Assembly: GCA_045535075.1 (NCBI GenBank)
Contig: JAZSKX010000014.1
Span: 174,373 to 238,372, forward strand
DNA length: 64,000 bases
DNA from: Candidatus Spyradenecus sp.
GTDB lineage: Bacteria > Verrucomicrobiota > Verrucomicrobiia > Opitutales > UBA953
Reading direction: 5' to 3'
Of this stretch, positions 23,921 through 56,661 are shown one piece after another. Every line of letters begins with the position of its first letter. Positions within the stretch are counted from its first letter, which is position 1. The translations under genes and the position numbers were made by a program. Below the pieces are notes generated by a model, which saw only the letters and a list, made by a program, of their open reading frames with translations, was not told the origin of the DNA and did not search any database.

Positions 23921-23966
23921 AATTGAAACCTTTTTCCCGCGAATGCGTTTATCCGAATTCAGTAAG

Positions 23967-25607: not shown

Positions 25608-25618
25608 TTTTTTTTGAA

Positions 25619-26908: not shown

Positions 26909-27288
26909 GGGGATGTTCCGGATTCGATTTCGGCAAATAGGTTGTGATTGCACGCGGAGGATGATACTTGGCCTCCTAAATCATGTATCGCCACGTTAAA
27001 TGGCAAAAACAATACCATCGCGTTTGAACGCAATGCGTTCGCGCTTGCTGCCTAATAGCTGCAGCACGGTTACGCTCGCCGACGCCTGCTAAGCGCGCGA
27101 GCCGTCAAAAAAGCAGGTAAAACTTCGAGCTTGTCAGCGTTCCCGCGAAGCCAAAAAAGGGAAAGCGGATAGGAATTCCCGGGCGTCGCCGCCCTCAGGA
27201 AAACCGAAATTCAAACGGACGGCTAAGCGTGTAGACGTTGCCTCCGAAAGGTCGAAAGACAGGGGTTCGACTCCCCTCATCTCCACCA
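26909..27288 (+). ncRNA. ssrA: tmRNA (SsrA)
   Basis: The 5' end GGGGATGTTCCGGATTCGA and the 3' end GGTTCGACTCCCCTCATCTCCACCA form a tRNA-Ala-like acceptor and T-arm. The internal tag ORF ends ...AATGCGTTCGCGCTTGCTGCC TAA TAG (..NAFALAA*). Confidence 0.9.
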
Positions 27289-38011: not shown

Positions 38012-39937
38012 ATGAGTAAAATTCTTGGAATCGACCTTGGTACCACCAATTCTTGCATGGCTGTCATGGAAGGCGGCGAACCCGTCGTCATCCCGAACAG
38101 CGAAGGCGCGCGCACGACGCCTTCGGTAGTCGCGTTTGCGAAAAACGGCGAACGCCTCGTCGGCCAGGCGGCAAAACGCCAAGCCGTTACGAACCCGAAA
38201 AACACGATCTTTTCGGCAAAACGCCTGATCGGCCGTAAATTTGCGGAAGTTCAGGAAGAAATCAAATCGTTCCCGTTCACCGTCGTTGAAGGTAAAAACG
38301 GCGACGCCGCAATTCAGGCGGAAGTGAACGGCAAAACGGAAACTTTCGCGCCGGAACAAATCTCCGCGATGGTGCTCGCAAAAATGAAAGCTGACGCCGA
38401 AGCCTATCTCGGCGAAAAAATCACGCAGGCGGTCATCACCGTTCCCGCGTATTTTAACGACGCTCAACGCCAAGCCACAAAGGACGCGGGAACGATCGCA
38501 GGGCTCGAAGTGCTCCGCATCATCAACGAACCGACCGCCGCTTCCCTCGCTTACGGTTTGGATAAAAAATCCGACGAAAAAATCGCGGTTTACGACCTCG
38601 GCGGCGGAACGTATGACGTTTCCATTCTCGAAATCGGCGACGGCGTTTTTGAAGTCAAAGCCACCAACGGCGACACTCAACTCGGCGGCGATAATTTCGA
38701 CGAACGCATCATTTCCTGGCTCGTTGACGGCTTCAAAGCCGAAAACGGAATCGACCTCCGCAACGACCCGATCGCGCTCCAACGCCTGAAAGAAGAAGCG
38801 GAAAAAGCCAAAATCGCGCTTTCGTCCACCAATTCCACCGACATCAATCTGCCCTTCATCACGGCGGACGCAACCGGCCCGAAGCACTTGAACGTCCAGC
38901 TCACGCGCGCCAAGCTCGAACAGCTTTGCGACGACTTGCTCGAACGCACCCGCATTCCGTTTGAAAAATGCTTGCGCGACGCCGAGCTTTCCATGAGCGA
39001 AATTAACGAGCTCGTTCTCGTCGGCGGTATGACGCGTATGCCGAAAGTCGTCGAAGTCGCCCGCAGCCTCGCGGGAAAAGAACCGCACAAGGGCGTGAAC
39101 CCGGACGAAGTCGTCGCTATCGGCGCTTCCATTCAGGGCGGCGTGCTCAAGGGTGATGTTCGCGACGTGCTTCTGCTCGACGTTACGCCGCTCACGCTTT
39201 CCATCGAAACCGCCGGCGGTGTTTCCACGCCGATGATTGAACGCAACTCGACGATTCCGACGAAAAAATCCCAGATTTTCTCGACCTACGCGGACAACCA
39301 GACCGCCGTCGACATCCGCGTTCTCCAAGGCGAACGCCCGATGGCGAAGGACAACAAGCAACTCGGGCTTTTCCGCCTCGACGGAATCAATCCCGCGCCG
39401 CGCGGCACGCCGCAAATCGAAGTTACCTTCGACATCGACGCGAACGGTATTTTGCACGTTTCCGCCATCGACAAAGGCACCGGCAAGAGCCAGGAAATCT
39501 CCATCACGGGATCGTCCGGCTTGAGCAAGGACGAAGTTGAAAAACTCCGCAAGGAAGCCGAACTTCACGCCGCGGAAGACAAAGTCCTTCGCGAAACCGC
39601 CGAAGCGCGCAACAAGCTCGACGCCTACGTTTTCCAAATCGAAAAGCAAATCAAGGAAGCCGGAGACAAAGTTCCCGCCGAACAAAAAGCGGAAATGGAC
39701 AAGCTCCTCGCCGACGCGAAGAAAGTGCTCGAAGACAAATCTTCCACGCTCGACGCGATTAACGAACAGGTTTCCAAAATCGAAAGCATCATGCAGGCGG
39801 CTCAGCAGTTCGCCCAGCAGCAACAGCAAGCCGGCGCGGGAACGCCTCCGCCGCCCCCGCAGAATGACGCTTCATCCGCCAAGAAAGGCGGCAACGGCGC
39901 CGTCGATGCCGACTTCGAAGTCGTCGACGATAAGTAA
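38012..39937 (+). CDS. dnaK: molecular chaperone DnaK
   Basis: [25 protein letters not shown], and full Hsp70 length (641 aa). Confidence 0.95.
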
Positions 39938-41269: not shown

Positions 41270-43474
41270 CTATCTCTTCTTAAAAGAAAGTTCGACGGAA
41301 GGATTTTTCGCGTCGGCGGCGCAAACGTATTCGATGCGAATCTTGTGCGTTCCCGCCGCGAGATTCACGCCGCGCATTCCCGTCGGGTTTTCCGTTCCGA
41401 CGTTCGCGTAGGATTTCGCTTCCGTGCCGGGTTTGTAAAGCTTGTCCGCGTCGATGAGCTGAATGTCGTAAAGATGGACGAAGGCTTTGCTTCCCTTGTT
41501 TTTGTCCGTTTTGAGGGAAAAAACATATTCGCCTTCTTCGGGAACGGAAATCGTGCCTTCAATCAAAATGCCGCGCGCGCCGCGCCCGTCGATAAATTTT
41601 TGCGGCAAGAGATTTTTGCCGAGCGGTTTTTCCTCCTTGCCGGAGAGCACGGGCTTTAAGTGCGTTTGGCGAAAATCCGGTACCCACGGGAACGCTTTGT
41701 CCGACGCAAAGGCTTTGTATTCAAATTTTAATTGCGTTGAATCGCCGGATTTTCCGACGGCGGGAACGGGATTTTTTTCAAAGAAAACTTTTTGCGAGAA
41801 ATCGAGTCCGCGCGTGTATTCGTGCGGATGTTTTCCGTCGAAAGCGCGGCGGGAACGCAACGCTTTGTCGCGCAGTTTTTGCTGGAAATCTTCGCCGAAG
41901 CCGGGCTTGCCCGCGAGATTTTTGCTTTCCTGAGGGTCTTTTAGTGTATCGTAAATTTCAAATACAACGGCGCCGTCGCCGGAAAATTTTGTATTTTCAT
42001 TTAAATTACGCGCCAAGCCTTTGTAGCCGTCAACCCAAACGACAAGCTGATTGCGGCGCGACAGCCCGTGGTGTGCGGGAACGAAATCGCCGCGCCGGCT
42101 TGAAGAGCCGCCGACGGAATATTCGCAGTAAATTTGCCCGGGCATTTGCTCGCCGCGCCCCGTCAGCGTCGGCAGAATCGACACGCCGTCCGAGCCTGAC
42201 GGAATTTCTATTCCGGCGGCATCGGCGAAGGTCGCGAGCCAGTCGTGGAATTGCGAGGGTTCGGTGGTCGTTTTTTTCTTCGGAATAAATTTCGGCCAGC
42301 GCACGATGGCGGGAACGCGCAAGCCGCCTTCGAACACGTCACGCTTGATGCCGTCCATCATGCCGTAAGACTTAAAAAACGCGGGATCCTGCGCCGGAGA
42401 GCCGGACGCGAAAAATGCGGTGCGCGCGCTGTCGTTGCCGGGTTCTTCATGCGGACCGTTGTCGGAAGTGAAAACGACCATCGTGTTGTCGTCGATTTTC
42501 AAATCTTTGAGCAGTTTGAAAAGGTCCGCCATCGCGTCGTCTACGCGGCGAATCATTGTCGAGTGGCGGCGGGCGGCATCGGTCGCGAAGTTTTTATTAT
42601 CGGGGTGAATGTAGGAATCGGGCGCGCCGAGTTTCGGGTCGGCAGTGTTGACGGTGCCGTTTTTCGTCCATTGGACGCCGCCTTTGATCCCGCCGCCTGA
42701 GGGATACGCGCAATTCGGCACGCGCAGAGAGCCGTGCGGAGCAGGGAGCGCGAGGTAAACGAAAAACGGCTGGCGCGGGTTGGTTTTTGTGCTTTTGACG
42801 ATCCAGTCTTTGGCGCGCGCGGTAAAAAGGTCTGTCGAATACGCGTTCCCGCTTTTGAGCTTGGGCGTTACATTTGTTTCGTTTTCCCAAACGTAGCGAC
42901 CGCAGTTCGCGGGGTAGTGATAATGCCCGGCGAGATGGTCGAAAATGCCGTAAAAATAATCGAATCCGCGTTCCCGTGCGCGGGCGAATCCGGTGTTTCC
43001 GGTTGAGCCGTTCCCGACGCCGCCGATACCCCATTTGCCGATGGCGGCGGTCGTGTAGCCGGCGGCTTGGAGTACGGATCCAAGTGTGTGGACATCGGCG
43101 ATGGGCGTGTCAAATGTGTTGTCGCGCACTTGTCGCGTGTGCCCTTGGTGCATTCCCGTCATGAGCGACGCGCGGGCGGGAGCGCTTACGGGGCAAGCCG
43201 TGTAATGGCGGGCGAGCAGAATGCCTTCGCTTGCCATTTTGTCGAGCGTCGGTGTTTTGAAGCGATTTGGGCGGGAACGGTTTTTGAATTTTTCGCCGTA
43301 GTTCCAATTGCAATTTAAGTCGCCCCAACCCATGTCGTCCACGAGTACGAAAATGATGTTCGGGCGTGCGCCGGAAGCGTTTTTCGGGGCGGCTCCCAAA
43401 GTTTGCGGGAACACGAACGGAGTGACGGCGGATGCCAGTAGGGCGGAGCGGAAAAATTTTTTTATACAAAGCAT
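41270..43474 (-). CDS. secreted Ser-type sulfatase with C-terminal PA14-like module
   Basis: Signal peptide, NIIFVLVDDMGWGDL, and an active-site block SAPARASLMTGMH, which is the Ser variant of (C/S)xPxR. The C-terminal ~140 aa are PA14-like (EGEYVFSLKTD...). Confidence 0.8.
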   Translation of the reverse strand: MLCIKKFFRSALLASAVTPFVFPQTLGAAPKNASGARPNIIFVLVDDMGWGDLNCNWNYGEKFKNRSRPNRFKTPTLDKMASEGILLARHYTACPVSAPARASLMTGMHQGHTRQVRDNTFDTPIADVHTLGSVLQAAGYTTAAIGKWGIGGVGNGSTGNTGFARARERGFDYFYGIFDHLAGHYHYPANCGRYVWENETNVTPKLKSGNAYSTDLFTARAKDWIVKSTKTNPRQPFFVYLALPAPHGSLRVPNCAYPSGGGIKGGVQWTKNGTVNTADPKLGAPDSYIHPDNKNFATDAARRHSTMIRRVDDAMADLFKLLKDLKIDDNTMVVFTSDNGPHEEPGNDSARTAFFASGSPAQDPAFFKSYGMMDGIKRDVFEGGLRVPAIVRWPKFIPKKKTTTEPSQFHDWLATFADAAGIEIPSGSDGVSILPTLTGRGEQMPGQIYCEYSVGGSSSRRGDFVPAHHGLSRRNQLVVWVDGYKGLARNLNENTKFSGDGAVVFEIYDTLKDPQESKNLAGKPGFGEDFQQKLRDKALRSRRAFDGKHPHEYTRGLDFSQKVFFEKNPVPAVGKSGDSTQLKFEYKAFASDKAFPWVPDFRQTHLKPVLSGKEEKPLGKNLLPQKFIDGRGARGILIEGTISVPEEGEYVFSLKTDKNKGSKAFVHLYDIQLIDADKLYKPGTEAKSYANVGTENPTGMRGVNLAAGTHKIRIEYVCAADAKNPSVELSFKKR

Positions 43475-44710: not shown

Positions 44711-46486
44711 TTAATGCTGTTCGAGAATTTTTTTGGCGCGTTCCCGTCGTTCAATTCTTTCTTGTTCTGCCCGTTCTTTTTTTCGTTTTTCGATGATCGC
44801 CCGGCGCTCCGCCTCTTTTTCTGCTGCGAGGGCGGCTTTTTCTTCCGTGTAAGTCGGAAGTTTGCGCGGGTAGCCTTTACAAGGAGTCCAAATCTTGGAT
44901 TCGCCTTTAAATTTATTGCGGACTTTGTTTTTTGCCTTTTCCGAAACGTCGATTTTCCAGCGTTCGAAATAGGGAACAAGGTTTTTTTCCGTCGCTTCGG
45001 CAAGCGCTACTAAGAAGAAATCCCAACGTTCCTGATTGGTTGTCGAGTTGTTGAACGGCTGTTCTTCGTGGTGGCGCAAAGCGACTTTCCGGAAGGAGTC
45101 GTAGCCGAGCCCGCGCATGAGTTCGACGAAGAAATAAAGTTTCAGGCGTACGTCTTCTTCTTTGTCGAAAGTCGTTTTGTTGTTTTTAGTCAAAAAAGCC
45201 TGGACGCTTGCTTTCATATCTTCGGGCGCGATGGAGGTTCCGTCCCAAGCCTGCTCGTAGGAGGTGCCGATCGCTTGTGTTTGACTGATTGTTGAGAAAA
45301 GATTGACCGTTACTTCCGTGCAGCCGTCAAAGCGGAAAGGTGCCCATTGATGGTTGTGTCCCAATTCGTGCCAAAGTCCCCAACTGCCTTGCTTGACGAG
45401 CATACCGCTTTTGATGCAGTTCCCCCAATCCATGTAGCCCATCGCGGGATAGCCCGAATGCCCGTAGCCGACGGAAATTTGTTCGTCGATGACAAAGCGC
45501 ATCGGCGTCGCAATTTGGTCCGGATATTTGTCCCAACCGACAAGCCAATCCTGAACCGCCATACCGCGTTGCAGGTTTTTGCAGAGCCTGCGCGGAACTT
45601 TCAGCAGGCGCAGATGCTCCGCGGGAACGGTAAAAATCAGGCGCGGAACGGCAATTTCACCCCATGGAGCCTTACATTCCGCAAGCTGCTTTTGCCACTC
45701 TTCCTGCTTAACGACGGCGATGTCGATGCCTTTGTCGTCTTTGTGCCCGAGGACAAAAAGCGGCGAAGCGATTCCGCCGGAAATTTCAACTCGGACGGGT
45801 TTATGCTTCGGGTGAACACCTTTGACATCAAGATAGATTAAGCCTCCGAACGGATTTGCCAGTTCAGCCTTTTTTTCTCCCGCCTTAATGCGGACGGTAT
45901 TCGTCATCTTGGGCGGGCGTTTTTGCGTGTTGTCGTGATGTTGTTCGAGGTGGCTTTTGGTGATGAAATCCGTGTGGCATCCGATACGCAAGTCCATGTC
46001 AAACTTGGTTTTCCCTTTAACCGATACCGTAATTTTGGCTCCCGGCGGCGCGTAAAGTCCCAAGCTGTGCCAACCGCCGACGGCGGGATCAATTTCCACC
46101 GTGCGCTCAATCAGTTCGACTTCGCCTTTGGGAACTCCCGGGAAAAATTCCGCGATGCGCGCCGCTTTGGTCCGTTTCGGGTCGCCGTTGAGAATATCGT
46201 CGATTTTTGCAATCCAAGCGTTGATTTTGGCGTTGTCCTTGCATGGTTTTTTCGGATGCGGTAAATCGTCCAAGGCGGGGTCTTTTTCCGCTGTTTCCCA
46301 GCTCCATTTGCCGATGACTTTATCTTTTTGGCAGGGAATCTTGTCGCGATACGTCGGCGCAAACGCATTGGTATCCAAGGCTTCTTCCATCGTAATTTCG
46401 TCTTTGACGGGAGCGGCAAGTCCGGAAAGCGTGTTTCCGCACAGAACGAACACGAAAAGACAGGTAAAAAAGCGCAAGAAATTCAT
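44711..46486 (-). CDS. secreted M60-like (enhancin/mucinase-type) zinc peptidase
   Basis: Signal peptide MNFLRFFTCLFVFVLCG, the WHELGHNHQ zincin motif, and a K/E/R-rich helical tail. The start was set to the ATG at 46486. Confidence 0.7.
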   Translation of the reverse strand: MNFLRFFTCLFVFVLCGNTLSGLAAPVKDEITMEEALDTNAFAPTYRDKIPCQKDKVIGKWSWETAEKDPALDDLPHPKKPCKDNAKINAWIAKIDDILNGDPKRTKAARIAEFFPGVPKGEVELIERTVEIDPAVGGWHSLGLYAPPGAKITVSVKGKTKFDMDLRIGCHTDFITKSHLEQHHDNTQKRPPKMTNTVRIKAGEKKAELANPFGGLIYLDVKGVHPKHKPVRVEISGGIASPLFVLGHKDDKGIDIAVVKQEEWQKQLAECKAPWGEIAVPRLIFTVPAEHLRLLKVPRRLCKNLQRGMAVQDWLVGWDKYPDQIATPMRFVIDEQISVGYGHSGYPAMGYMDWGNCIKSGMLVKQGSWGLWHELGHNHQWAPFRFDGCTEVTVNLFSTISQTQAIGTSYEQAWDGTSIAPEDMKASVQAFLTKNNKTTFDKEEDVRLKLYFFVELMRGLGYDSFRKVALRHHEEQPFNNSTTNQERWDFFLVALAEATEKNLVPYFERWKIDVSEKAKNKVRNKFKGESKIWTPCKGYPRKLPTYTEEKAALAAEKEAERRAIIEKRKKERAEQERIERRERAKKILEQH

Positions 46487-46614
46487 ACTCTCAGAATAAT
46501 GAAACGCCCGTGCGCCGCTCAAACAAATTCCTACGCGTAAATTTCGGCGGGAACGGGGAGCTTTCCGGTGCTTCCTCGCTTGCGTCGTGCGGCGACGCTT
46601 TTTAGATTGTCGCC

Positions 46615-47613
46615 ATGTATTTTAAGGAAGAATCCGAACGTTTCTCTAAATTGCTTGAAAAGCTTGCCGGCAAGCGCGTCGCCGTTATCGGGCATGTGCG
46701 TCCGGACGGCGATTGTATCGGTGCGCAGGTCGCTCTCTGCCGTATTTTGCGTTCCCGCGGCATTGATGCCGTTTGCGTCAATCACCATCCTGTTCCTTAT
46801 AATTTAAAAAACTTTGTCGGCGATACACCGTTTTTTCATGAGCCGGATTTTGAAAATGACGGGCGAATCGCCGTTGCCGTGGACTGCGGAAATCTTTCCC
46901 GACTCGGAAAATCGCTTCTCGAAAAGGCGTTCCCGCAAGGCGTCTTTGCGGCAATCGATCACCACGAAACCAACGAATTTTTCGCGTCCGAAGAAAACAT
47001 CGTCGTCACGCGTGCCGCGGCAACGTGTCATTTGCTCGCCGCGTTTTGCTTGGATTGCGACATTTCGATCGATCCGGTGTTGGCAAACGCGCTTTATGTC
47101 GGAATCGCGACCGATACCGGGCAATTCCAATATTCTTCGACAACGGCGGAAGTGCTTGAAATTGCGGGAAAACTCATTCGCGCAGGTGCCTCTCCGGAAT
47201 TTGTTTCACGCGAACTTTACGAACAGGAAAAATTTCAAAAACTCGAACTGCTCCAACGTTATCTCGCGACCGCGCAACTCTATGCCGACGGCAAAGTCGC
47301 TGTTGCATGGATTCCCAAAAATGCTTTTGAAGAAACGGGAACGACGCGGGAAGATGCCGACAATTTTGTCAATTATCTGCGCGGGATCGCAGGCGTTCAA
47401 ATCGCGTGTCAACTCGAACAATCGCATACGGGTGTGAAAGGAAGCCTGCGTGCGCCTAACGACCGGATTCGTGTCGATTTGCTCGCAAAAAAGTTTAACG
47501 GCGGCGGGCATATTCGCGCTGCCGGATTCAATCTTGACGGCGCCGATCTCGATCGCGACCGCGAACGAATCATTGCCGTCATTCTCGACCACCTGAACGC
47601 GTCTGCGTTCTGA
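46615..47613 (+). CDS. nrnA: DHH/DHHA1 phosphoesterase (NrnA-like oligoribonuclease/pAp phosphatase)
   Basis: GHVRPDGDCIGA, AIDHHETN and GGGHIRAAGF motifs. Confidence 0.8.
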   Translation: MYFKEESERFSKLLEKLAGKRVAVIGHVRPDGDCIGAQVALCRILRSRGIDAVCVNHHPVPYNLKNFVGDTPFFHEPDFENDGRIAVAVDCGNLSRLGKSLLEKAFPQGVFAAIDHHETNEFFASEENIVVTRAAATCHLLAAFCLDCDISIDPVLANALYVGIATDTGQFQYSSTTAEVLEIAGKLIRAGASPEFVSRELYEQEKFQKLELLQRYLATAQLYADGKVAVAWIPKNAFEETGTTREDADNFVNYLRGIAGVQIACQLEQSHTGVKGSLRAPNDRIRVDLLAKKFNGGGHIRAAGFNLDGADLDRDRERIIAVILDHLNASAF

Positions 47614-47662
47614 CGCTTACAGATTTTAGTCTTGTGTAGGATATGTTGGAGTCGTTGCTGAT

Positions 47663-48853
47663 TTATTTCCCGGGAAAATTCTCGTCGGTAGAAAAAGCTA
47701 CTAAAGCAACTTTAATTTTTCGATGAATGCGCAATAGCGACTTAAGAAGAGCTGCTGACTGGGGCGAAAGTCCCTGTTTTACAAGGAATTCTGCTTGGTA
47801 TTCCAGGGTAACGAGTGCTTGTGTGAGATTCACTTGACATCTCCCATGGTCTCTAAATCCAGGGAAACCTCTATTGATAAAATTGGAGGCAGGACAAGTG
47901 TAGCAAGTGTGTTTAATCGGACACCCTTGGCAGTAGGGGTCGTTGTGATATTCTAGGCGCTCAGGTCTGTAATCAGCAAAAACACGTGCACGTTTCCCTG
48001 CACATACCGGGGAAAACATACTGCATGGATATAGCACCCCATCCACATCATAGCACACCTTTAGCATACCTGCGCCACAGCGCTGGGAGCAGGGAGCGTC
48101 TGAATCTTCTCCACCTTTGAAAAAAGGTTCAAGTAGTGTTGGTATTACTTGTGGAAATTCAATGTAGAATTGTTTGAGCTCTCGCAATTGGGCTTCTAGG
48201 GTAATCGCGTCTTCGTGCGACCACGACACACCATTTGCCAACTGGGCCCGCAAAGAGTACCCTTTTTCTGTTGCAGTACGTATATCTTTTGCCACTGTAG
48301 ATACAGTGGCAGGACTAACAGTCATACGAAAAGACATGTCCGGCCACTCACATCGGCAAAACTCTAGAGCAGATTCAGAAAAGCAACCACGATTTTGGTG
48401 TTGTGCAGAAGTAGAACCGTCATAACTGACAGTAAGAACCACCATATCTTTATTCTGGCGAAACCATTCCTTCATTTCATCATTCAATAGTGTACCATTC
48501 GTGATTACCATAAACATGGTGGGACACACCTGTGCGCGAGGGCGCGCCCACGGAACTAGCTTCTTTATTAACTCAAAATTCAACAACGGTTCTCCTCCAA
48601 ACAGCTCTACCAGCAGCCATGAAAAACGGGGATCCTGCCGCACGAGATTCATCTGCTCACTCACACAACGCTGAGCCGTAACAAAATTCATTGAGTGCTC
48701 CGTTTTAAAATGCTCGTAACAATAGGAACAATTCAGATTGCAACTTCGCGTCAAAATAAGCGTACACGTTTTGTTTTTACGCCTAGTAAGAGGAGGTAAT
48801 TGTTCGATAATCGGGGTTAATGCTAGTTCTTTCATTAGAGTGATATAGAACAT
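47663..48853 (-). CDS. radical SAM/SPASM-domain enzyme (paralog 2)
   Basis: CNLNCSYCYE (CX3CX2C), GGEPLL, and a C-terminal Cys cluster CGAGMLKVCYDVDGVLYPC...CQGCPIKHTCYTC (SPASM pattern). The start is ambiguous among GTG 48862, ATG 48853 and ATG 48835. Confidence 0.8.
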   Translation of the reverse strand: MFYITLMKELALTPIIEQLPPLTRRKNKTCTLILTRSCNLNCSYCYEHFKTEHSMNFVTAQRCVSEQMNLVRQDPRFSWLLVELFGGEPLLNFELIKKLVPWARPRAQVCPTMFMVITNGTLLNDEMKEWFRQNKDMVVLTVSYDGSTSAQHQNRGCFSESALEFCRCEWPDMSFRMTVSPATVSTVAKDIRTATEKGYSLRAQLANGVSWSHEDAITLEAQLRELKQFYIEFPQVIPTLLEPFFKGGEDSDAPCSQRCGAGMLKVCYDVDGVLYPCSMFSPVCAGKRARVFADYRPERLEYHNDPYCQGCPIKHTCYTCPASNFINRGFPGFRDHGRCQVNLTQALVTLEYQAEFLVKQGLSPQSAALLKSLLRIHRKIKVALVAFSTDENFPGK

Positions 48854-48906
48854 CCGGCACACGAAGAGATAATGTCTCGAGTGCCGGATGGAAGCGATTT
48901 TTCTAC

Positions 48907-49050
48907 TCAGTCAGCAAAAGTACATTTGTACCCATCGCAACAACCGATGCAACCGGACTTCATTTCTGTAAGGAAGCCGTCAGCCTCGCTAACGACACCA
49001 AATTCCGTCTCGAACGCATCAAGTACGGCTCTAATCTGTAGTTCTGTCAT
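48907..49050 (-). CDS. 47-aa Cys-rich small ORF, candidate rSAM-modified precursor peptide
   Basis: My manual translation is MTELQIRAVLDAFETEFGVVSEADGFLTEMKSGCIGCCDGYKCTFAD*. It is absent from the track, which only lists ORFs of at least 60 aa. An in-frame TAA lies 9 nt upstream of the ATG. It has the same strand as, and lies between, the two rSAM genes. No clear SD sequence. Confidence 0.55.
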   Translation of the reverse strand: MTELQIRAVLDAFETEFGVVSEADGFLTEMKSGCIGCCDGYKCTFAD

Positions 49051-49112
49051 GATTTTATATTATTTATTTTGTCGTTTTTTCTTTCTTGCCGACACCATAT
49101 CGGCAAAATTTG

Positions 49113-50345
49113 TTATATGGTCGCAAGCTTCCTTTCAATTTTCTTACAAATGCGTAATAAAAATTTGAGTATCGCTGCTGATTCTCGTGTTAGAGGTTCA
49201 CGAATTCTTATTTGTTGTTGAAGTTCTGCCGTAACGAGTGCTTGGGTCAAATACATATGACACATCCCATGATCCCGCAAAGAAGTATGTCCTCTAATCG
49301 CATAGTTCATTCCGTAACATGTAGGACACCAGTGACGTATGGGACATCCTACGCACGTGGGATCTTCACGTGCACTTTCTTGAGTCAAATCAACTTCAGA
49401 AAGGGGCATGTTCTTTTCCCCTACGGTCAACGGCGTAAACATTTGGCAAGCGTAGGTTCGACCATCGACATCGTAGCAAGTGCAACGTGTTCCGCTCCCG
49501 CAAGCTACTACACCGCTTATGTCGGCATCTTCCCCCCCCTTGAAAAACCGATCGAGTAATGTGAGTGGTAGATTCTGATCTGCTAAAAATGCATTTTTTA
49601 ACTTGCGACACTCTTCCAAAAAGAGAGAAGCACATTCTCTTGGCCAGTAAATACCTCCTGCAAGTTCTGCCCGAATACGAAACCCTTGTCGTAATGCGGT
49701 CAAAATCGTTTCAGATAAATTTACAATGGAATCCGGTGGGATTGTCATTCGGAAAGCCTGAGACGGCCAAGTTTTTCGGCAGAAATCAACAGCACTTTCA
49801 TTCCGCATTCCCCGATTACGAAGTTGCGACTCTTTTGAGCCATCATAGCTAACACCATAGAAAACGATGTCCCGATTAGCCAATAACCATACTTTAATCT
49901 CATCTGTCAGCAGAGTTCCGTTCGAGGAGATAGTGAAATGCACATTTACGTCTTTCACATTATCTCGGACCCACTGGACTAAGAGACGTATCACATCGAA
50001 ATTGAGTAGTGGCTCCCCTCCAAACAAATCAACTGATAACCACGTGTATTTGGAACTCTCTCGAACAAAATCAAGTTGCTCGTTTAGACAGCGTAGAGCT
50101 GTCCGGAATGTCATTTTTCGAGATGTTTTGAACTTTTCATAACAATAAATACAACGTAGATTGCAGTTGTGCGTTAAGATTAGCATGCACATTTTAGCAG
50201 TCCGCGCATTGCGTCCTGTTTCAATAGCTACAATACTGGCAACTTCGTGTGGAACGGTCTTTGTGTTTACACAATCGCTTTCTGCTAACATGGGGGCATC
50301 CGTTCTATCTGCACAATTCAAGGCAAGTGTTGTGCGTTGTGCCAT
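49113..50345 (-). CDS. radical SAM/SPASM-domain enzyme (paralog 1)
   Basis: CNLRCIYCYE, GGEPLL, and CGSGTRCTCYDVDGRTYAC...CVGCPIRHWCPTC. It aligns by eye with paralog 2 along its whole length. An internal start at 50291 (MLAESD) is possible. Confidence 0.8.
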   Translation of the reverse strand: MAQRTTLALNCADRTDAPMLAESDCVNTKTVPHEVASIVAIETGRNARTAKMCMLILTHNCNLRCIYCYEKFKTSRKMTFRTALRCLNEQLDFVRESSKYTWLSVDLFGGEPLLNFDVIRLLVQWVRDNVKDVNVHFTISSNGTLLTDEIKVWLLANRDIVFYGVSYDGSKESQLRNRGMRNESAVDFCRKTWPSQAFRMTIPPDSIVNLSETILTALRQGFRIRAELAGGIYWPRECASLFLEECRKLKNAFLADQNLPLTLLDRFFKGGEDADISGVVACGSGTRCTCYDVDGRTYACQMFTPLTVGEKNMPLSEVDLTQESAREDPTCVGCPIRHWCPTCYGMNYAIRGHTSLRDHGMCHMYLTQALVTAELQQQIRIREPLTRESAAILKFLLRICKKIERKLATI

Positions 50346-50347
50346 TT

Positions 50348-52783
50348 CTACCTTTGACGGCGTCTGCGGGAAGCGACGAGTGCTAAAATGCCCCCGCCCG
50401 CCAGCAATCCGAACATCGACGGTTCTGGAATTGCCGACGCTGTGACTGCGTAGCTCGAAAAATCGGCCGTAATGAAGCTGAGCGTTCCCGCAATTTCGTC
50501 ATAGGAAATGTTTCTGACAATATTTGTGTAATCTTCCCATTCGGCATCATCGCTATCTGCTTTGTGGAATATTTTAATCGTTGATGCATCGCGATACTGA
50601 CCGACATTGAGGACAACGAGTACGTCCGACTTCCCTGCGCCTTCACCGTTTTCAACGTCGAAAGACCACGCAGCTAAAGTTTCGTCGTCGAGGTTTCCCG
50701 TATTGATAACCACCGATGATGCATCCAGTTCTTTTGCCGCGTTGATGATAACACTTTCCGCTGCCGCAGAAAGCGTTACTGCCGACGATTTCGCTGAAAT
50801 TTCCAAAGATGTTCCCGCGGAAAGCTCTTGCGGCGCGTCAATATCTCCGACAACAATGTTCGTTGCTCCCGCCGTGAAAACGCCGTCTGCATAAGTTCCG
50901 CCGAAAGCGATAACAGCCCCGGAAGCGTGGATCGCATTTCCCGCACGATTGACAAAAACATTCACGGAATCGCCGGATTCTAAATTTCCTCTCAAGAAGA
51001 CAAGCACACCATCGTTCACAAGCGTTTCTGTAATTTGGGCGCACTTTTTATGATTAACGGTGAATGTAACCTCTGCTCCGTCGGAAATTGTCATCTTGGA
51101 AAATTGATTTGATGAGTTTTCAAAAAATACTTGAGTATTTGGACCTGATATATCGAGGATTGAGCCTGTGTTTATTGCGCCCTCCCTGAAAAATACCGTT
51201 GCGTTGTCCGAAATATAAGTGGTTGCAACAATTCCTCCTCCAAAATCGTATATCCCTTTGCCGCATATTTCTACTATTTTAGCCTGGATATCATTTGAAA
51301 CGCCGCCGGCAGAATTGTTTCTAAAAAACATTTCTCCTGCTAAGAGCCTGATTCTCTGGTCTGCACATATTGCTCCCCCTTTCTCTAATGCGATATTATT
51401 CAAAAAGCGATTTTTCCCCGAAATAGTCGCGATATCGTTGTTTATACTTATTGCTCCTCCGTTTTTACCAGATTTGTTTTGTTCAAATACATTATTGCCG
51501 TCAATTTGGTTGTATTTATTACTAGAAGTTACATGGATCGCCCCTCCATTCCAAGTGGCTGAATTTCCTTTGAATATATTTTTCCCTGAAATGCTGAGAG
51601 AGCCATCGCCAGTCCAAATTCCGGCGGCGATAGCACCTCCACTTTGGGAGGAGAAATTATTTTCGAATGTATTTTCTCCGGAAAGAGAAATATTACCCCA
51701 CGCGAATATAGCACCGCCACCATTATCACCTCTGCAGGAATTGTTTCGAAACGTATTTTTCCCTGATAGAGAAATTTTGAGTCTCGAATGAATTGCACCT
51801 CCGTCTCCGTCTGCGCAGTTGCCAATAAAAATGTTTGTACTGTTGGTATCAGAGGTGATAGATCCTCCATATCCCTCAATAGCACCTCCGCTTGCGGCAG
51901 AGCAATTTTCTTCAAACCAATTCTCCCCTGAAATAGACACCGTTCCACTAATTGCACCTCCGCCTCCGGCTCCGTATCCCTTTGAAGAATTCTTTTTGAA
52001 CACATTTTTTCCTGACAATATTGTTTTTTTCCCACTAATCGCTCCTCCACCTGATTCTGCCGAATTCCCTTCAAATTTATTCTCTCCCAAAATAGTGATA
52101 TTGCCGCCTGAAATAATGGCTCCCCCCTGATACGACGATATATTCTCGGAAAAGTTATTCTTTCCGCTGATTGTCAAATCGTTTTGTACGAATAATGCTC
52201 CTCCAGAATCCTGAGAGGTGTTTTTCGAAAACAAGTTGTTACCATCAATGCTCATTTGTCCGGACGAATAAATGCCCCCCCCTGATCGCTCCGCTGAATT
52301 TTCAGTGAATGTGTTCGACCCAAACAATACGATGTCGTTTCCGTAGATGGCACCTCCTGAATAAGCTGAGTTTTTAGAGAAAATGGTAGATTCTCCGGAA
52401 AAGTTCAATCTCTCCGATCGAATAGCTCCTCCTCCCGACGAAGTCGCTCCGGAGCTAAAAATTACATCCGAAGTTTGAAGATTTAAAATCCCGTCAAACA
52501 ATCTTCCGTTGTCCAATGTGATTTTTCTTTGACTCCCTTGGATATTTGATTGAATTGATAAACTTGAGATGACCTGTTCTGTATTTTCGGTTACATCAGA
52601 CGAAATAGTAACAGTTTTGCCGTTTAGGGTATCCCCGGACTTGATAAGCAGATTGTAAACTTCAGAAATTGTATTACCTACTACCGTGTTTCCGTCATTA
52701 GTTGAAGTGTAAATAGAGGCGACGCTAGAGCTTTGAGCTGCAACCAAAAATAGGAGGGAAATGGAAATAAAAGGAAATTTCAT
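50348..52783 (-). CDS. PEP-CTERM-anchored surface protein with Pmp-type (FxxN/GGAI) repeats
   Basis: Signal peptide, and about 14 units of ~25 aa such as FSKNSAYSGGAIY, FTENSAERSGGGIY and FEGNSAESGGGAI. The C-terminus is IPEPSMFGLLAGGGILALVASRRRRQR. Confidence 0.8.
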   Translation of the reverse strand: MKFPFISISLLFLVAAQSSSVASIYTSTNDGNTVVGNTISEVYNLLIKSGDTLNGKTVTISSDVTENTEQVISSLSIQSNIQGSQRKITLDNGRLFDGILNLQTSDVIFSSGATSSGGGAIRSERLNFSGESTIFSKNSAYSGGAIYGNDIVLFGSNTFTENSAERSGGGIYSSGQMSIDGNNLFSKNTSQDSGGALFVQNDLTISGKNNFSENISSYQGGAIISGGNITILGENKFEGNSAESGGGAISGKKTILSGKNVFKKNSSKGYGAGGGGAISGTVSISGENWFEENCSAASGGAIEGYGGSITSDTNSTNIFIGNCADGDGGAIHSRLKISLSGKNTFRNNSCRGDNGGGAIFAWGNISLSGENTFENNFSSQSGGAIAAGIWTGDGSLSISGKNIFKGNSATWNGGAIHVTSSNKYNQIDGNNVFEQNKSGKNGGAISINNDIATISGKNRFLNNIALEKGGAICADQRIRLLAGEMFFRNNSAGGVSNDIQAKIVEICGKGIYDFGGGIVATTYISDNATVFFREGAINTGSILDISGPNTQVFFENSSNQFSKMTISDGAEVTFTVNHKKCAQITETLVNDGVLVFLRGNLESGDSVNVFVNRAGNAIHASGAVIAFGGTYADGVFTAGATNIVVGDIDAPQELSAGTSLEISAKSSAVTLSAAAESVIINAAKELDASSVVINTGNLDDETLAAWSFDVENGEGAGKSDVLVVLNVGQYRDASTIKIFHKADSDDAEWEDYTNIVRNISYDEIAGTLSFITADFSSYAVTASAIPEPSMFGLLAGGGILALVASRRRRQR

Positions 52784-52819
52784 GATAATCAGTTTTAGAG
52801 GTGATAGAAAAACGGAGTT

Positions 52820-53560
52820 TTACTTCCGGCGACGGCGGGAAGCGACGAAGGCAAGCGTGCCAAGCCCGGCAAGGAGACCGAACATCGACGGTTCCGGGAT
52901 CGAATGCATCGAAACGCTGTGGATGAGCCCGTTTGTGCGGTATTGCGTGTTGAGGTCTCCACCAAGCGCAAACTTGCTAATGGTTCCCGAGAAATTCCCG
53001 ACAAGCGTTCCCGAAGCCGTTTCAACTCCGTTTACTGTAATTGAAACCGCGTTGCCTATTTTCGTGAGGGAGAACGCATAATATTGGTTGGGAGTAACGG
53101 CAATAATACCGGAAGAATTCGTTTGTATGTCTCCGTAGAGGGAAACACGATTCGCATTTTCGGAGTCGGGGCCAAAGCTCAATTTGATGTCGGAGACTTC
53201 TCCGGTTGTTGCGTTGGTTGCGGTCCCGCCGATTTCAGCGAAGAGTGTTTTGGCGTACGAACTTGCATAAATCTTTTCCCCGAGGGTGATATTAACGGTA
53301 AACACAAAATCGTCAGACCAATCGCCGAAATTACCCGTGAAACTCGGACGTTTATTACTTGCGGCAATTGCTCCTCCGATTTGCGCTCCCGTATATTGAT
53401 TGATGGATGCCTTTTCAATTTCAAGGTTTCCTTGGGCGGAGTAGAAATTCTCATATTCGATTCCGAAGTTAATGCTCCAAGCCCAATCGCCGGTAGCGTA
53501 AAGAGGTATGCCGGAAAAGCTTGTCGCAAGAAGTGTAGTAAGAATGATTTGTTTTTTCAT
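52820..53560 (-). CDS. PEP-CTERM-anchored secreted protein (lectin/LamG-like beta-sandwich suspected)
   Basis: Signal peptide MKKQIILTTLLATSFSG. The C-terminus is IPEPSMFGLLAGLGTLAFVASRRRRK. Confidence 0.7.
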   Translation of the reverse strand: MKKQIILTTLLATSFSGIPLYATGDWAWSINFGIEYENFYSAQGNLEIEKASINQYTGAQIGGAIAASNKRPSFTGNFGDWSDDFVFTVNITLGEKIYASSYAKTLFAEIGGTATNATTGEVSDIKLSFGPDSENANRVSLYGDIQTNSSGIIAVTPNQYYAFSLTKIGNAVSITVNGVETASGTLVGNFSGTISKFALGGDLNTQYRTNGLIHSVSMHSIPEPSMFGLLAGLGTLAFVASRRRRK

Positions 53561-53643
53561 AGATGATAGATCTTTTAGTGTTAAAAATATTTCCGTAGAA
53601 CAATCGGTTTACCCGATGTTATAAGAATTTTTCCTAAAAAGTA

Positions 53644-53896
53644 GCGCTTTGGAAAAACGTCGGGCTTTCCTCTCAAGAACCGCGGAATACACGGAAAGCA
53701 CGGAAATCGTTAAGCGCAAAAATTACAAAATTCCTCTCAAAGAACTGCGTAAGAAAAAACTCAAACACAACTCAAAATAAACATTCTTTATCTGTGTTTA
53801 TCTGCGCAATCTGCGTGTTTTTCTTGCTTCCGTGAAATTCCGTGTTTTCCGTGATAAAAAAAGTAATTTTTTGTTGCCGACGCTTTTCCAAACCGC
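53644..53896. repeat. 253-bp inverted-repeat element with internal iteron-like repeats
   Basis: The outer inverted repeat is GCGCTTTGGAAAAACGTCGG (53644-63) against CCGACGCTTTTCCAAACCGC (53877-96). There are 3x C(A/G)CGGAA at 53681, 53690 and 53699, mirrored by 3x TTCCGTG at 53828, 53838 and 53847. There are also 3x ATCTG(T/C)G at 53790, 53800 and 53809. Confidence 0.5.
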
Positions 53897-54060
53897 AGTT
53901 TTTACTTAAAGGTCGTTGCAGTGCAACTGAAAACCGAGCTCAAGAACTCCGAGGAGCTCTTCCTTTCTCGGGTTGTTTTATTCCCTTCATATGATGTCGT
54001 AAGACGGATGTGTTTCTCTGTTTTATTTAACTTTTTCTGGATCGGTGTCTGGTGTAGAGT

Positions 54061-56661
54061 GTGAGCATGAATTTGTTCGTGCTTGTGTTCGTATTGGGGA
54101 TTTACCTCTTCCCGAGCGTTTTGGTTTACCTCATACTCGCGGGGAAAATCAGGAGTTTGGAGGGAACTGTCCGCCTCCTTCTCGAAAATCGTAAGTTGCG
54201 GGAAAAATCACCGGACACTGTTTGCCCGAAGCCAAGTGTAACGCCGCCCGAATCTCCCGAAAACAACGCGCCCCAAACGCCTCGCGGGAACGTTGCTCCG
54301 AAGCCTTCCGCCGTTCCTCCCGGACAGGATTTTCGCGGGAACGAAGTTTCGCCGCCGCCCGTGCCGATTCCCGCGATGAGCGATCCTGCGATTCCGCTTG
54401 TAGAGAAATTGCGGGAATGGAAAATCCTGCCGCCGGAAAACATGTCGCTTGAAATTGCCGTTATGCAGTGGTGGGCTCCGCGCATCGGCGGAGTATTGGC
54501 ATTGCTTGCGCTGATATTTTTCGGTGTTTGGGCGTCGCAGTTTTCGTCTCCGCTGATCAAGGTCTTGGAAATGGCTGCGGTCGCCGTCGGCATTGCCGGC
54601 TTCGGCTTGTATCTGAACCGACATGAGAAAAACTCATTGGGAGATTCGTTGACCGCCACGGGAACGACGATGTTTTATCTGGTTGCGCTCGCGGCGGGGA
54701 CGTTCCCGTCGACAAAAATTTTTGACAGCATTCCGGTCGCGTTACTTGTTCAAATCCTTGCGATTGTGCCGACGATTTTGCTCGGGCGGGGGAAATTTAT
54801 TCCGATGCTCCTGTCGCTTGTTTTTGCGTTCGTGAGCGCACTTTTTGCCGTACTCAACGGCGCGGGAACGGCAGCGCTGGCGACTTCTTTGCTGGCTTAC
54901 ATTGTTGCCGCGTGGTTTTGCGCAAAGAAAAATACACTGGGACTTTTGTTGGCGGGAGCGATCGGTGCTTTTTTGCCGCTTTGGACGATCGTTCACCCGG
55001 AAATCAGTCCGGAAGTTTATGAGTCGCTTATAACAGAAAGTAATGAAACTCATTCGGTTGTCGCAATGCTCCTCGGAGCTACGAGTCTGGGCGTTTATCT
55101 GACTTTTTTTGTGATAGGAATTGTTATTCCCAATTGCGTCCTTCTTAAAACACGAAACACGAGCGTATTCGGAAAATTTATTTATGCGGTCGGCTCGATT
55201 CATGCGTTAGTCGCAACGGCGCTTGTCATGGAAAGATTCCGATTCCTTTTGACCTCGGTTCGGCTTTGCCCGGATTCGCCCGATATCATTTTCGCTTTGT
55301 TTTTTACGGCGGCAACGCTCGTGTTCCTGAGTGCGGCGCGGCTTGCATTTTGTCGTTTTCGAGAGAATAAATTTCTTTTCGAATTCAATTTTGTCGCGGG
55401 AACGCTGGCACTTTCCGCCGCAATTATCGCATGGATTCCGTCTTCCGGGAAAAACGTTCTGTTTTACGCGATGCTCGCTCAGGCGCTTCTCCTCGCTTAT
55501 GCGGGGCGTTCGCTTAATACCAAATGGACTCTGATTTCGCTTATCGCCTGTCTTGGCCTTTCAATCGGAGCGAGCACGGATTGCACACTACTTGAAGCCT
55601 GCTTGCGTGCGGCGGTAACACTAATCGCCGTTGCCTGGTTTTTCGGAAATAAAAAGCAATGGCAGAGCGAATTCCCTCGGATAATTGCGCTTGTCGTTTG
55701 CGCGGGAGCGGGAATTTTATCCGCTTTGACTCTTTATGACGCATCGCTCGCCTTGACGAATTTGACGGTAGTCTGCATCGTTTTCCCTTTGTCTTGCTTG
55801 GCGGTTTTGACGGCGGGAACGCTTTTGCCGCATTTTACGAAAAAACCGTTTTTGTGGAGTGCCGCAACCTGGGGCGCGCTCATTCTTTGCTGTGCCGCCG
55901 GAGACGTTTTTATCGAAAAACTCACGTTTAGTTATTGGCTTGTTGCCGGCGTAATCGTCGTCGTGCTCGCCGTTCCCGCGCTGCGGTATTTTATCAAAAA
56001 CGAAAAAATCGGTTCTGCCGCAGAACTTAGTCTTAGCGTTCCGATTTTGATTTGCCTCACGGGAATTCTATTTTTACGGAATCATTTTCATCTTGCCGGA
56101 TTTGCGTTTCTCCTGCCTTTGGTTGCGTTGTTCGCGGGAACGCCGTGGCGAAAAAATTCCGCGATTCTTCCGCTTGCGCGTCGCGGTGCGGAGGCATCGG
56201 CGTTGCCCTTGCTTGCAGTTATCTTTTTCCTTGTCGACAGCGCGATTCTAAAAGAACAGCTACGTTCTCCGATTGTTCCCGTCGCGTTGGCGCTTTACGT
56301 CTTTCTGCCGTTTTGTTTTTCTGCGATGCGCCAGCTTCTGCGGGAACGCCCGTGGTTTGCGGTTGCGGCGAGTGTCTCGGGAACACTTTGCCTGTTGTAT
56401 TGGGGAGATGTCTCGTTCCCGCGTTTTTTAACGGCGGAAGGAGTAATCATCGCAATCGCTTTGATATTTGCCGGTTTGCTTGCTCGCGTTTCTTCCGTAC
56501 GTATTGTCGGGATAATATTGCTTGCGGGAATGCTTTTACGCCTGTTCCTCTGCGATATCAGCGATACGATTTGGCGCATCGTTGCCTTTGCTTCGGTCGC
56601 TGCGGCGCTCTTCCTAATTGGCTTCCTTTATCAGCGGCTTTCAAAAATTATCGAAAAATAA
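54061..56661 (+). CDS. large polytopic membrane protein (DUF2339-like)
   Basis: One N-terminal TM helix, a short coiled segment, a Pro-rich linker, then more than 20 TM helices. This is the layout I associate with DUF2339. Confidence 0.6.
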   Translation: MSMNLFVLVFVLGIYLFPSVLVYLILAGKIRSLEGTVRLLLENRKLREKSPDTVCPKPSVTPPESPENNAPQTPRGNVAPKPSAVPPGQDFRGNEVSPPPVPIPAMSDPAIPLVEKLREWKILPPENMSLEIAVMQWWAPRIGGVLALLALIFFGVWASQFSSPLIKVLEMAAVAVGIAGFGLYLNRHEKNSLGDSLTATGTTMFYLVALAAGTFPSTKIFDSIPVALLVQILAIVPTILLGRGKFIPMLLSLVFAFVSALFAVLNGAGTAALATSLLAYIVAAWFCAKKNTLGLLLAGAIGAFLPLWTIVHPEISPEVYESLITESNETHSVVAMLLGATSLGVYLTFFVIGIVIPNCVLLKTRNTSVFGKFIYAVGSIHALVATALVMERFRFLLTSVRLCPDSPDIIFALFFTAATLVFLSAARLAFCRFRENKFLFEFNFVAGTLALSAAIIAWIPSSGKNVLFYAMLAQALLLAYAGRSLNTKWTLISLIACLGLSIGASTDCTLLEACLRAAVTLIAVAWFFGNKKQWQSEFPRIIALVVCAGAGILSALTLYDASLALTNLTVVCIVFPLSCLAVLTAGTLLPHFTKKPFLWSAATWGALILCCAAGDVFIEKLTFSYWLVAGVIVVVLAVPALRYFIKNEKIGSAAELSLSVPILICLTGILFLRNHFHLAGFAFLLPLVALFAGTPWRKNSAILPLARRGAEASALPLLAVIFFLVDSAILKEQLRSPIVPVALALYVFLPFCFSAMRQLLRERPWFAVAASVSGTLCLLYWGDVSFPRFLTAEGVIIAIALIFAGLLARVSSVRIVGIILLAGMLLRLFLCDISDTIWRIVAFASVAAALFLIGFLYQRLSKIIEK

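Follow-up and report, generated by a model that had tools for sequence, protein, structure and literature searches.

Within a 64,000-nucleotide stretch of the genome of Candidatus Spyradenecus sp., a member of the Verrucomicrobiota (GenBank assembly GCA_045535075.1, contig JAZSKX010000014.1, positions 174,373 to 238,372; hereafter 'the window'), we identified a three-gene cassette in which a 47-amino acid peptide gene lies between genes for two radical S-adenosylmethionine (SAM) enzymes with C-terminal SPASM regions, here called rSAM-1 and rSAM-2. Comparative sequence evidence indicates that the cassette is a selected precursor gene genetically locked between two distinct, cofactor-complete enzymes that lack a RiPP recognition element (RRE). 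We consider it probable that the three genes form a system for a ribosomally synthesised peptide that is modified post-translationally (RiPP), in which the enzymes install cysteine-derived thioether crosslinks on the peptide. The cassette is best read as a previously undescribed RiPP-type peptide family that resembles ranthipeptide and sactipeptide systems and falls outside the PapB, SCIFF, CXXX-repeat, QhpD and anSME families, without being categorically new. The features of the locus are as follows.

49113..50345, minus strand: rSAM-1, the upstream radical SAM/SPASM paralog, RRE-less (open reading frame (ORF) of 410 amino acids, likely 392)
49086..49106, minus strand: 5' stem-loop of 7 base pairs, UUGCCGA-N7-UCGGCAA (from folding and covariation)
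48907..49050, minus strand: precursor peptide gene, 47 amino acids (ORF with conserved homologs)
48851..48890, minus strand: 3' stem-loop between the peptide stop codon and rSAM-2 (from folding; extended structure approximately 48838-48912)
47663..48853, minus strand: rSAM-2, the downstream radical SAM/SPASM paralog, RRE-less (ORF of 396 amino acids, likely 390)

A conserved peptide gene lies between two radical SAM genes

The ORF at 48907-49050 encodes the peptide MTELQIRAVLDAFETEFGVVSEADGFLTEMKSGCIGCCDGYKCTFAD. Our translation is identical to that in the initial annotation, which had noticed this ORF in the gap between the enzymes and called it unannotated. That description needs amending, as assemblies in NCBI, ENA and Logan already include the same peptide (P0121) among their gene calls; the gene is unnamed, not undetected. 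Pfam and NCBIfam searches matched no family to the peptide, and a word-index search returned the query alone. Homologs were obtained through inspection of gene neighbourhoods and an exhaustive search of representative proteins.

We identified peptide homologs of 46-48 amino acids, 53-66% identical to the window peptide, between orthologs of both enzymes in approximately 10 other Verrucomicrobiota lineages (loci L081-L085, L088-L098 and others). The small ORF is thus conserved beside homologous enzymes in related genomes. An exhaustive phmmer search of 1.84 billion representatives yielded five further small-protein clusters (53-64% identity) and no more. The loci of these new clusters (L088-L097) also read rSAM, peptide, rSAM, as does L098, the one locus among the matches listed in a metagenome scan with the peptide alignment. 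Neighbourhoods in metagenome-assembled genomes (MAGs) labelled 'Akkermansia sp.' likewise hold peptide homologs between two radical SAM genes, the copy at L082 being uncalled. Gene order is rSAM-1, peptide, rSAM-2 in every complete locus across these lineages, as expected of RiPP loci in general, where a small gene for a leader and core stays linked to its modifying enzyme from genome to genome. A search of the window with a hidden Markov model (HMM) built from the peptide family gives a single copy.

Substitution patterns indicate that the 47-amino acid ORF is a real gene under purifying selection. Pairwise ratios of nonsynonymous to synonymous substitution rates (dN/dS) among the peptide genes are 0.1-0.3, and 26 of the 44 differences between the window and L081 copies fall at third codon positions. 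Synonymous sites are at or near saturation between the window copy and those of L081 and L083 (dS 2.4 or not computable). The ORF has no upstream Shine-Dalgarno sequence, a feature that it shares with other genes of this genome.

The flanking enzymes are cofactor-complete radical SAM/SPASM paralogs

Both minus-strand enzyme ORFs (49113..50345 and 47663..48853) contain the CX3CX2C and GGEPLL motifs and 10 cysteines in the C-terminal third, as first described. Their proposed paralogy is borne out by 45% identity over 363 residues in an ungapped alignment (E 3e-119). We aligned 21 proteins, comprising rSAM-1 and rSAM-2 orthologs and six distant relatives. The SAM-cluster motif (CNLxCxYC), which reads CNLRCIYC and CNLNCSYC in the two window enzymes, is invariant in 21 of 21. 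Scores for Radical_SAM (Pfam accession PF04055) are 48.8 bits for rSAM-1 and 35.7 bits for rSAM-2 against a threshold of 29.5, placing both enzymes in the superfamily. Fer4_12 is the only other Pfam family matched (36.7 and 32.1 bits, threshold 22).

SPASM regions follow the pattern CX9-15GX4C...CX2CX5CX3C...C and bind a pair of auxiliary [4Fe-4S] clusters. In rSAM-2, the corresponding cysteines are C259-X12-G272-X4-C277, C308-X2-C311-X5-C317-X2-C320 and C339. The resulting pattern, CX12GX4C...CX2CX5CX2C...C, is invariant in both paralog clades and the outgroups; it contains all seven expected cysteines, with one spacing of X2 in place of X3. An eighth cysteine (C267 of rSAM-2) is conserved in the ingroup. 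Both clades therefore retain the three SAM-cluster cysteines and all seven (plus one) in the SPASM region.

High-ranking NCBIfam matches for both enzymes are peptide maturases throughout, each short of its curated cutoff. The best is PapB (NF047865), with 100.2 bits for rSAM-1 and 112.9 bits for rSAM-2 against a cutoff of 340; its alignment covers model positions 4-325 of 330 and thus the radical SAM core and SPASM region. Other maturase models, with scores for rSAM-1 and rSAM-2 in that order, include the nif11-type (94 and 98 bits, below cutoff), CXXX-repeat (TIGR04115, 74.5 and 86.4 bits, cutoff 350), SCIFF (TIGR03974, 82.3 and 68.8 bits, cutoff 425) and QhpD (TIGR03906, 76.8 and 72.7 bits, cutoff 453) families. 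The sulfatase maturase model (TIGR03942, cutoff 349) is outside the 25 best matches of rSAM-1, all of which have E <= 7.7e-10, and matches only the N-terminal part of rSAM-2 (41.1 bits). Across an alignment of 35 family members, the leading models are still PapB and CXXX-repeat, and the best E-value is 1.5e-54.

Structural comparison also places rSAM-2 with the SPASM enzymes CteB and anSME. The AlphaFold2 (AF2) model of rSAM-2 (confidence score, pLDDT, 92) begins with two four-residue helices, followed by beta-1 from residue 27, with no N-terminal winged helix. Two long extra helices extend beyond the last cluster ligand at the C-terminus. The best Foldseek match in the PDB is CteB (5why/5wgg; E 9e-15, template modelling score 0.64), followed by anSME, TigE, ChlB and SuiB. 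By sequence, too, CteB ranks first among solved structures (E 6.5e-13). In a tblastn comparison, QhpD aligned to a window enzyme with 26% identity over 77% of the query.

An old duplication within a wider family of Cys-peptide maturases

We built a neighbour-joining tree of 15 cassette enzymes and six distant relatives. The tree groups all upstream enzymes together (176 of 200 bootstraps) and all downstream enzymes in a second clade (199 of 200), with single-enzyme relatives outside both. This separation by position implies that the duplication predates the divergence of these lineages. Retention of both copies with intact cofactor ligands points to non-redundant roles: each paralog would have its own ring specificity, or the two would act as an obligate complex.

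Distant homologs with 27-35% identity, which are single-copy and also RRE-less, occur in Bacteroidales, Lachnospiraceae, Oscillospiraceae, Synergistales and other groups. Among the matches listed in a genome-collection scan with the enzyme alignment, all are at <=35% identity and the window's own lineage is not included. Eight of the 10 best distant loci have a co-directional small ORF adjoining the enzyme that encodes a leader and a Cys-rich C-terminus. Next to the enzyme, such ORFs show an approximately 28-fold enrichment over the remaining parts of the distant loci. The cores that they encode include CxxCxxC and CXXX repeats, with CXXX-repeat precursors adjoining the enzyme at L007 and L008. 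The peptide-family HMM identified no homologs in 85 loci of distant single-enzyme relatives, whose Cys-rich precursors are unrelated to the window peptide. From these alignments and neighbourhoods, we place the window cassette, as a specialised branch that has undergone duplication, in a broad clade of RRE-less Cys-peptide maturases that lacks curation.

One further distant family member (30% identity, 82% coverage) was observed at 122440-123444 of OY725981.1, an unannotated 125-kb Phocaeicola massiliensis record from a plasmid collection.

Anatomy of the precursor and a proposed two-ring model

In the window peptide, residues 1-31 form an acidic leader (net charge -5) that precedes the core SGCIGCCDGYKCTFAD. 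Leaders across the family are approximately 31 amino acids long and acidic (net charge -2 to -6), with invariant A-F-E and G-x-V-x-E-A motifs. A single-sequence, low-confidence AF2 model of the peptide (pLDDT 60) places helices at residues 3-16 and 23-32, which hints that the leader may be helical.

The family core reads S-G-C-x-G-[C/V]-C-D-x-[Y/G/N]-K-C-x2-3-COOH. Columns S32, G33, G36, C38, D39, K42 and C43 are invariant and C34 at least nearly so, and the internal C-D pair is conserved. Position 41 is frequently Tyr, with Gly or Asn in two relatives. The last cysteine always lies three to four residues before the C-terminus. The peptide end is C-x3-D in five variants and C-x2-E in four, with CTFA and CTIY seen once each. 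The terminal CX3D arrangement pointed out in the initial annotation is therefore a feature of the window peptide and, across the family, one form of a looser rule.

The three conserved cysteines, the invariant Asp that follows the second of them, the invariant Lys before the last and the fixed distance of the last from the C-terminus make a two-ring model the most economical. By analogy with PapB, CteB and QhpD, the enzymes would bind the acidic, helix-prone leader directly. Chemistry based on the 5'-deoxyadenosyl radical would then link core cysteine sulfurs to carbons of other core residues as thioethers. One ring might join a cysteine on the N-terminal side to Asp39, and the other might run from Cys43 to whichever residue ends the peptide (D, E, A or Y), possibly in a PapB-like manner at the carbon alpha to the carboxylate. 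In the simplest version each paralog would make one ring; alternatively, the two could form an obligate complex like TrnC and TrnD, which are reported to work in this way (PMC12093266). Leader removal and export, if any, would rely on unlinked genes in this genome.

Properties of PapB make this chemistry plausible. PapB joins Cys to the carbon alpha to an Asp or Glu side-chain carboxylate or to the C-terminal carboxylate (PMC12373016), and tolerates Cys-Xn-Asp/Glu spacings of n = 0-6 (PMC9413430). An enzyme with this tolerance for CXnD and use of the C-terminal carboxylate would accommodate every natural core variant observed here.

A more ambitious proposal is one that we regard as doubtful. 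The cassette could represent a new RiPP class restricted to gut Verrucomicrobiota, in which an RRE-less, obligate paralog pair installs two chemically distinct rings, one of them anchored at the C-terminus, on a single 16-residue core. The leader would be bound through a non-RRE surface, possibly the C-terminal helical hairpin, and YcaO chemistry would be added in some lineages. If this were true, the membrane-anchored ankyrin and Sel1 proteins and small ORFs with two transmembrane segments that recur beside related cassettes would suggest a function at the interface with the host or with competitors.

RNA hairpins bracket the precursor gene

A stem-loop reported previously at 49086-49106 (TTGCCGA-N7-TCGGCAA) was found there. 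This 5' hairpin lies directly past the rSAM-1 stop codon and approximately 35 nucleotides upstream of the peptide ATG, with a predicted folding energy of -13.2 kcal/mol (z -2.6). Across 12 loci, 100% of alignment cells are paired, compensatory changes occur in four of the seven pairs, and the covariation score exceeds all 500 shuffles. The alignment includes 11 G.U cells; these pairs would be A.C mismatches on the opposite strand, and it is therefore the mRNA strand that carries the structure. The window contains the motif a single time where 0 copies are expected, and among 98 retrieved loci the motif is found upstream of peptide genes only.

A second, stronger hairpin, overlooked in the initial annotation, follows the peptide gene. 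Its 10-base pair core stem pairs 48881-48890 with 48851-48860 (-27.8 kcal/mol, z -5.33, none of 200 shuffles as stable). The 3' arm covers the ATG at 48853, and the hairpin ends 15 nucleotides before the likely rSAM-2 start at 48835. Every related locus has a strong hairpin directly past the peptide stop codon, which in the relatives is GC-rich and has a U-tract. The sequences of these 3' hairpins are non-homologous between lineages; their structure and position are shared. A consensus terminator scan identified no minus-strand terminator in the region; the hairpin behind the peptide gene, with its long loop and weak U-tract, escaped it.

Hairpin-bounded precursor transcripts are known in other RiPP operons. 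The two hairpins that bracket the precursor ORF would probably give a stable, abundant precursor mRNA and reduce read-through into rSAM-2. Their conservation makes this locus a clean case of transcript architecture that may be tuned to the ratio of precursor to enzyme.

The precursor gene is tandemly duplicated in several relatives (L081 6397-6938; L083/L084 8238-8779; L085; L095 3087-3511). In L081 and L083/L084 the repeat unit is approximately 400 nucleotides long and carries the ORF with both of its hairpins, 5' and 3', together with a remnant of the rSAM-1 3' end. The second copy in L095 is without the 5' hairpin.

Comparison with characterised systems

Of the characterised enzymes, PapB, which forms Cys-Asp thioethers in CX3D motifs of PapA (the ranthipeptide freyrasin), is the best profile match for both window enzymes. 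The cores of the window peptide and its homologs resemble that of PapA in having cysteines with a downstream Asp or Glu and a CX3D or CX2E C-terminus. PapB differs in carrying an N-terminal RRE (residues 1-85; PMC12715619), as compared with the approximately 30-40 residues without a winged helix-turn-helix at this position here. A single PapB enzyme acts on six motifs, whereas here two paralogs would share one short core with three or four cysteines. The host of PapB is Paenibacillus rather than a verrucomicrobium, and scores of 100-113 bits against 340 mark the window enzymes as non-members of its family.

CteB, the SCIFF (thermocellin) maturase, is the best structural match, and its precursor of approximately 45 amino acids likewise has a conserved leader and a Cys-rich C-terminus. 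SCIFF systems usually lack a dedicated protease or exporter. Unlike the window enzymes, CteB has an RRE and acts as a single enzyme, and the window peptide matches no NCBIfam family, the SCIFF model included. The CXXX-repeat maturase model (TIGR04115) is the second- or third-ranked full-length profile match, but the window core (GCIGCCDGYKC) is not a CXXX repeat.

TrnC and TrnD of thuricin CD are also two paralogous radical SAM/SPASM enzymes that are encoded together, providing a precedent for obligatory retention of both paralogs here. Thuricin CD differs in its two precursors, RRE-type recognition, ABC transporter, S-to-C-alpha links and Firmicutes host (PMC12093266, PMC3132745); the window has one precursor type between the enzymes and no transporter. 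QhpD is a radical SAM/SPASM enzyme that forms Cys-to-Asp/Glu thioethers in QhpC, the quinohemoprotein amine dehydrogenase gamma-subunit. Its substrate is an enzyme subunit, whereas that of the window enzymes would be a free 47-amino acid peptide, and there are no qhp genes in the window neighbourhood. Finally, anSME shares the fold, the lack of an RRE and a similar length, and is the second-best structural match; it differs from the window enzymes, which have a dedicated, conserved peptide partner.

Weighing the thioether RiPP assignment

The proposal that the peptide is a RiPP precursor for one or both flanking enzymes, which the initial annotation had put forward, gains support from the conserved adjacency and from scores that do not fit sulfatase maturases. 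Several observations weigh against a thioether RiPP system. First, chemistry is not confidently transferable from any characterised family because the scores are far below every curated cutoff. Second, the Pfam SPASM model (PF13186) has no match in either window enzyme at E <= 1. Precomputed PF13186 matches occur in a few distant relatives only, and the HMM appears insensitive to this divergent subfamily. Third, neither enzyme has an RRE: approximately 30-40 residues precede the SAM motif, with no PqqD/RRE Pfam match. Fourth, the window contains no protease, exporter or immunity gene. The earlier description of two maturases with no RRE or PqqD-like domain and no adjoining protease or exporter is thus accurate. 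Fifth, the core is variable at positions that matter to the model. C37, one of the four window cysteines, is Val in three relatives, the C-terminal residue may be D, E, A or Y, and the proposed acceptor residues are guesses. Finally, some relatives encode a YcaO protein, so the set of modifications may differ between lineages.

The alternative that survives best, which we nevertheless hold to be unlikely, concerns the role of the product rather than its chemistry. The modified peptide might stay inside the cell, for example as a peptide that binds metals or takes part in redox reactions, or as the precursor of a cofactor, much as in SCIFF, mycofactocin or pyrroloquinoline quinone systems. Such a role is compatible with thioethers. 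An intracellular role would explain the lack of a protease and exporter, and the window also lacks an immunity gene. The size and Cys-rich C-terminus of the peptide are SCIFF-like, CteB is the best structural match, and the only invariant gene set is enzyme-peptide-enzyme. However, the cassette is rare and lies in variable low-GC or integrase-adjacent islands, unlike a core gene. In addition, the immunity-like ORFs with two transmembrane segments, the M48 peptidase and the duplicated precursors found in relatives fit a competitive or secreted product better.

A less likely alternative retains the same cassette and assigns it other chemistry, such as a C-C cyclophane on Tyr41/Lys42, epimerisation, or Cys oxidation or elimination. 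Function is not transferable when curated cutoffs go unreached, and Foldseek matches also include the cyclophane synthase ChlB (template modelling score 0.64), SuiB, the epimerase EpeE and anSME. Of the two residues proposed for a cyclophane, Lys42 is invariant and Tyr41 is often present. However, cysteines dominate the invariant core residues, and replacement of Tyr41 by Gly or Asn in two relatives breaks the aromatic-X-X motif. The profiles for cyclophane enzymes (YhhB at 46-48 bits, AmcB at 34 bits), like other maturase profiles, score far under the 100-113 bits of PapB, and distant family members pair with CXXX-repeat and CxxC-type cores.

It is very improbable that the enzymes are anaerobic sulfatase maturases for the organism's own sulfatases with an incidental small ORF between them. 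A Ser-type sulfatase is encoded 4 kb away, anSME is the second-best structural match, and some JGI annotations of distant relatives read 'AslB'. Against this, rSAM-2 scores 41 bits with TIGR03942 where 349 are needed and rSAM-1 does not have the model in its top 25, in every lineage the two enzymes enclose a conserved peptide gene under selection, and sulfatases are not conserved neighbours. We rejected a sulfatase-maturase identity on these profile scores and on synteny.

Least probable of all is a chance ORF in a regulatory spacer that owes its conservation to RNA or DNA elements: conserved hairpins do flank the ORF and no Shine-Dalgarno sequence precedes it, but the latter is common to other genes in this genome, the peptide genes show dN/dS values of 0.1-0.3 and 26 of 44 changes in third codon positions, and frame and length (46-48 amino acids) are kept at 53-66% amino acid identity despite dS at or near saturation.

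Translation starts and genomic neighbourhood

Both enzyme ORFs likely start at an internal methionine, as judged from ortholog alignments. For rSAM-1, M19 at 50291 gives a protein of 392 amino acids. Its orthologs are 391-392 amino acids long, and the public gene call at L086, from the same species, is 392. For rSAM-2, M7 at 48835 gives 390 amino acids, a start favoured because MKELALTP is the conserved N-terminus of orthologs. With the M19 start, 56 nucleotides separate the stop codon of the adjacent PEP-CTERM gene from rSAM-1, as opposed to 2 nucleotides with the long start.

The cassette lies in a low-GC island at approximately 47600-54200 (GC 0.41-0.46 versus 0.50-0.58 in the flanks), which suggests a horizontally acquired or variable region. 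The island also holds two PEP-CTERM surface-protein genes (50348..53560, minus strand, identified by Pfam matches), which are context outside the system. One encodes 811 amino acids with Chlam_PMP repeats and the other 246 amino acids with a Laminin_G_3 domain. The initial annotation had suggested that the cassette is co-transcribed with these genes. The adjacency is real in the window; it is lineage-specific and present in none of the related lineages, leaving a functional link unsupported, although co-transcription is conceivable.

In relatives, the cassette has other neighbours, including ankyrin proteins (several of them membrane-anchored), Sel1 proteins, small ORFs with two transmembrane segments, an M48 peptidase, an integrase and a YcaO protein. 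A tblastn search of the window with relatives' accessory genes (ankyrin, Sel1, YcaO, M48 and small transmembrane ORFs) found none. The ankyrin proteins, several with transmembrane anchors, and an 11-repeat Sel1 protein are encoded at L081 9229-10437, L082 9244-10788, L098 9-566 and 3683-5494, and L092 5125-6654. Small hydrophobic ORFs of the two-transmembrane type (46-102 amino acids) lie beside the cassettes at L098 597-740 and 797-937, L095 1662-1805, L081 10468-10617 and 10633-10941, and L088 3755-3940. These are possible immunity or membrane partner proteins.

A YcaO-domain protein of 600-623 amino acids is encoded immediately upstream of rSAM-1, abutting it, in L087 (2157-3965) and L092 (623-2494), and also in L093 and L094. 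Loci with YcaO belong to two peptide sub-lineages, P0125 and P0127. The YcaO genes hint at additional backbone or azoline chemistry in these variants.

Elsewhere in the window, genes for a TolC-family outer-membrane protein and then an HlyD-type membrane-fusion protein (23745-26785, plus strand) lie approximately 21 kb from the cassette and are a possible unlinked export route. The Ser-type sulfatase (SAPAR motif; 41270-43474, minus strand), 4 kb from the cassette, and an M60-like peptidase (44711-46522, minus strand) make up a mucin-degrader toolkit typical of gut Verrucomicrobiota. The remainder of the window includes genes for LptF/G, DHH phosphoesterases, DnaK and transfer-messenger RNA. 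The last of these is full length (26909-27288, plus strand; Rfam accession RF00023, 146 bits) and is the sole Rfam match in the window.

DnaK (38012-39937, plus strand) is closest to metagenome proteins (89-95% identity) and, among named sequences, to those of Puniceicoccales/Opitutales MAGs (75-82%). The organism is a verrucomicrobium and not clearly an Akkermansia. The nearest relatives of the cassette (63-68%), unlike those of DnaK, are labelled Akkermansia sp. Lateral transfer between gut Verrucomicrobiota could explain this mismatch, as could loose taxonomic labels on the MAGs.

Implications for RiPP discovery and peptide macrocyclisation

To our knowledge, few natural products have been described from gut Verrucomicrobiota, the phylum that includes Akkermansia. 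Full-text searches of a literature library found no paper on this cassette or on any radical SAM RiPP from gut Verrucomicrobiota or Akkermansia, and nothing specific on the CXXX-repeat family. Standard, RRE-anchored mining would miss the family described here, with its RRE-less enzymes and a peptide that no model recognises. A published compendium of radical SAM RiPP enzymes was built from RRE-associated radical SAM enzymes only (PMC10288494) and would not contain it.

The three-gene cassette offers a compact test of RRE-less leader recognition and of what maintains both paralogs when only a single short core is present. PapB-type thioether ligases are under development for peptide macrocyclisation (PMC12373016, PMC12715619), and a small, RRE-less enzyme pair with possibly orthogonal ring specificities could serve the same purpose.

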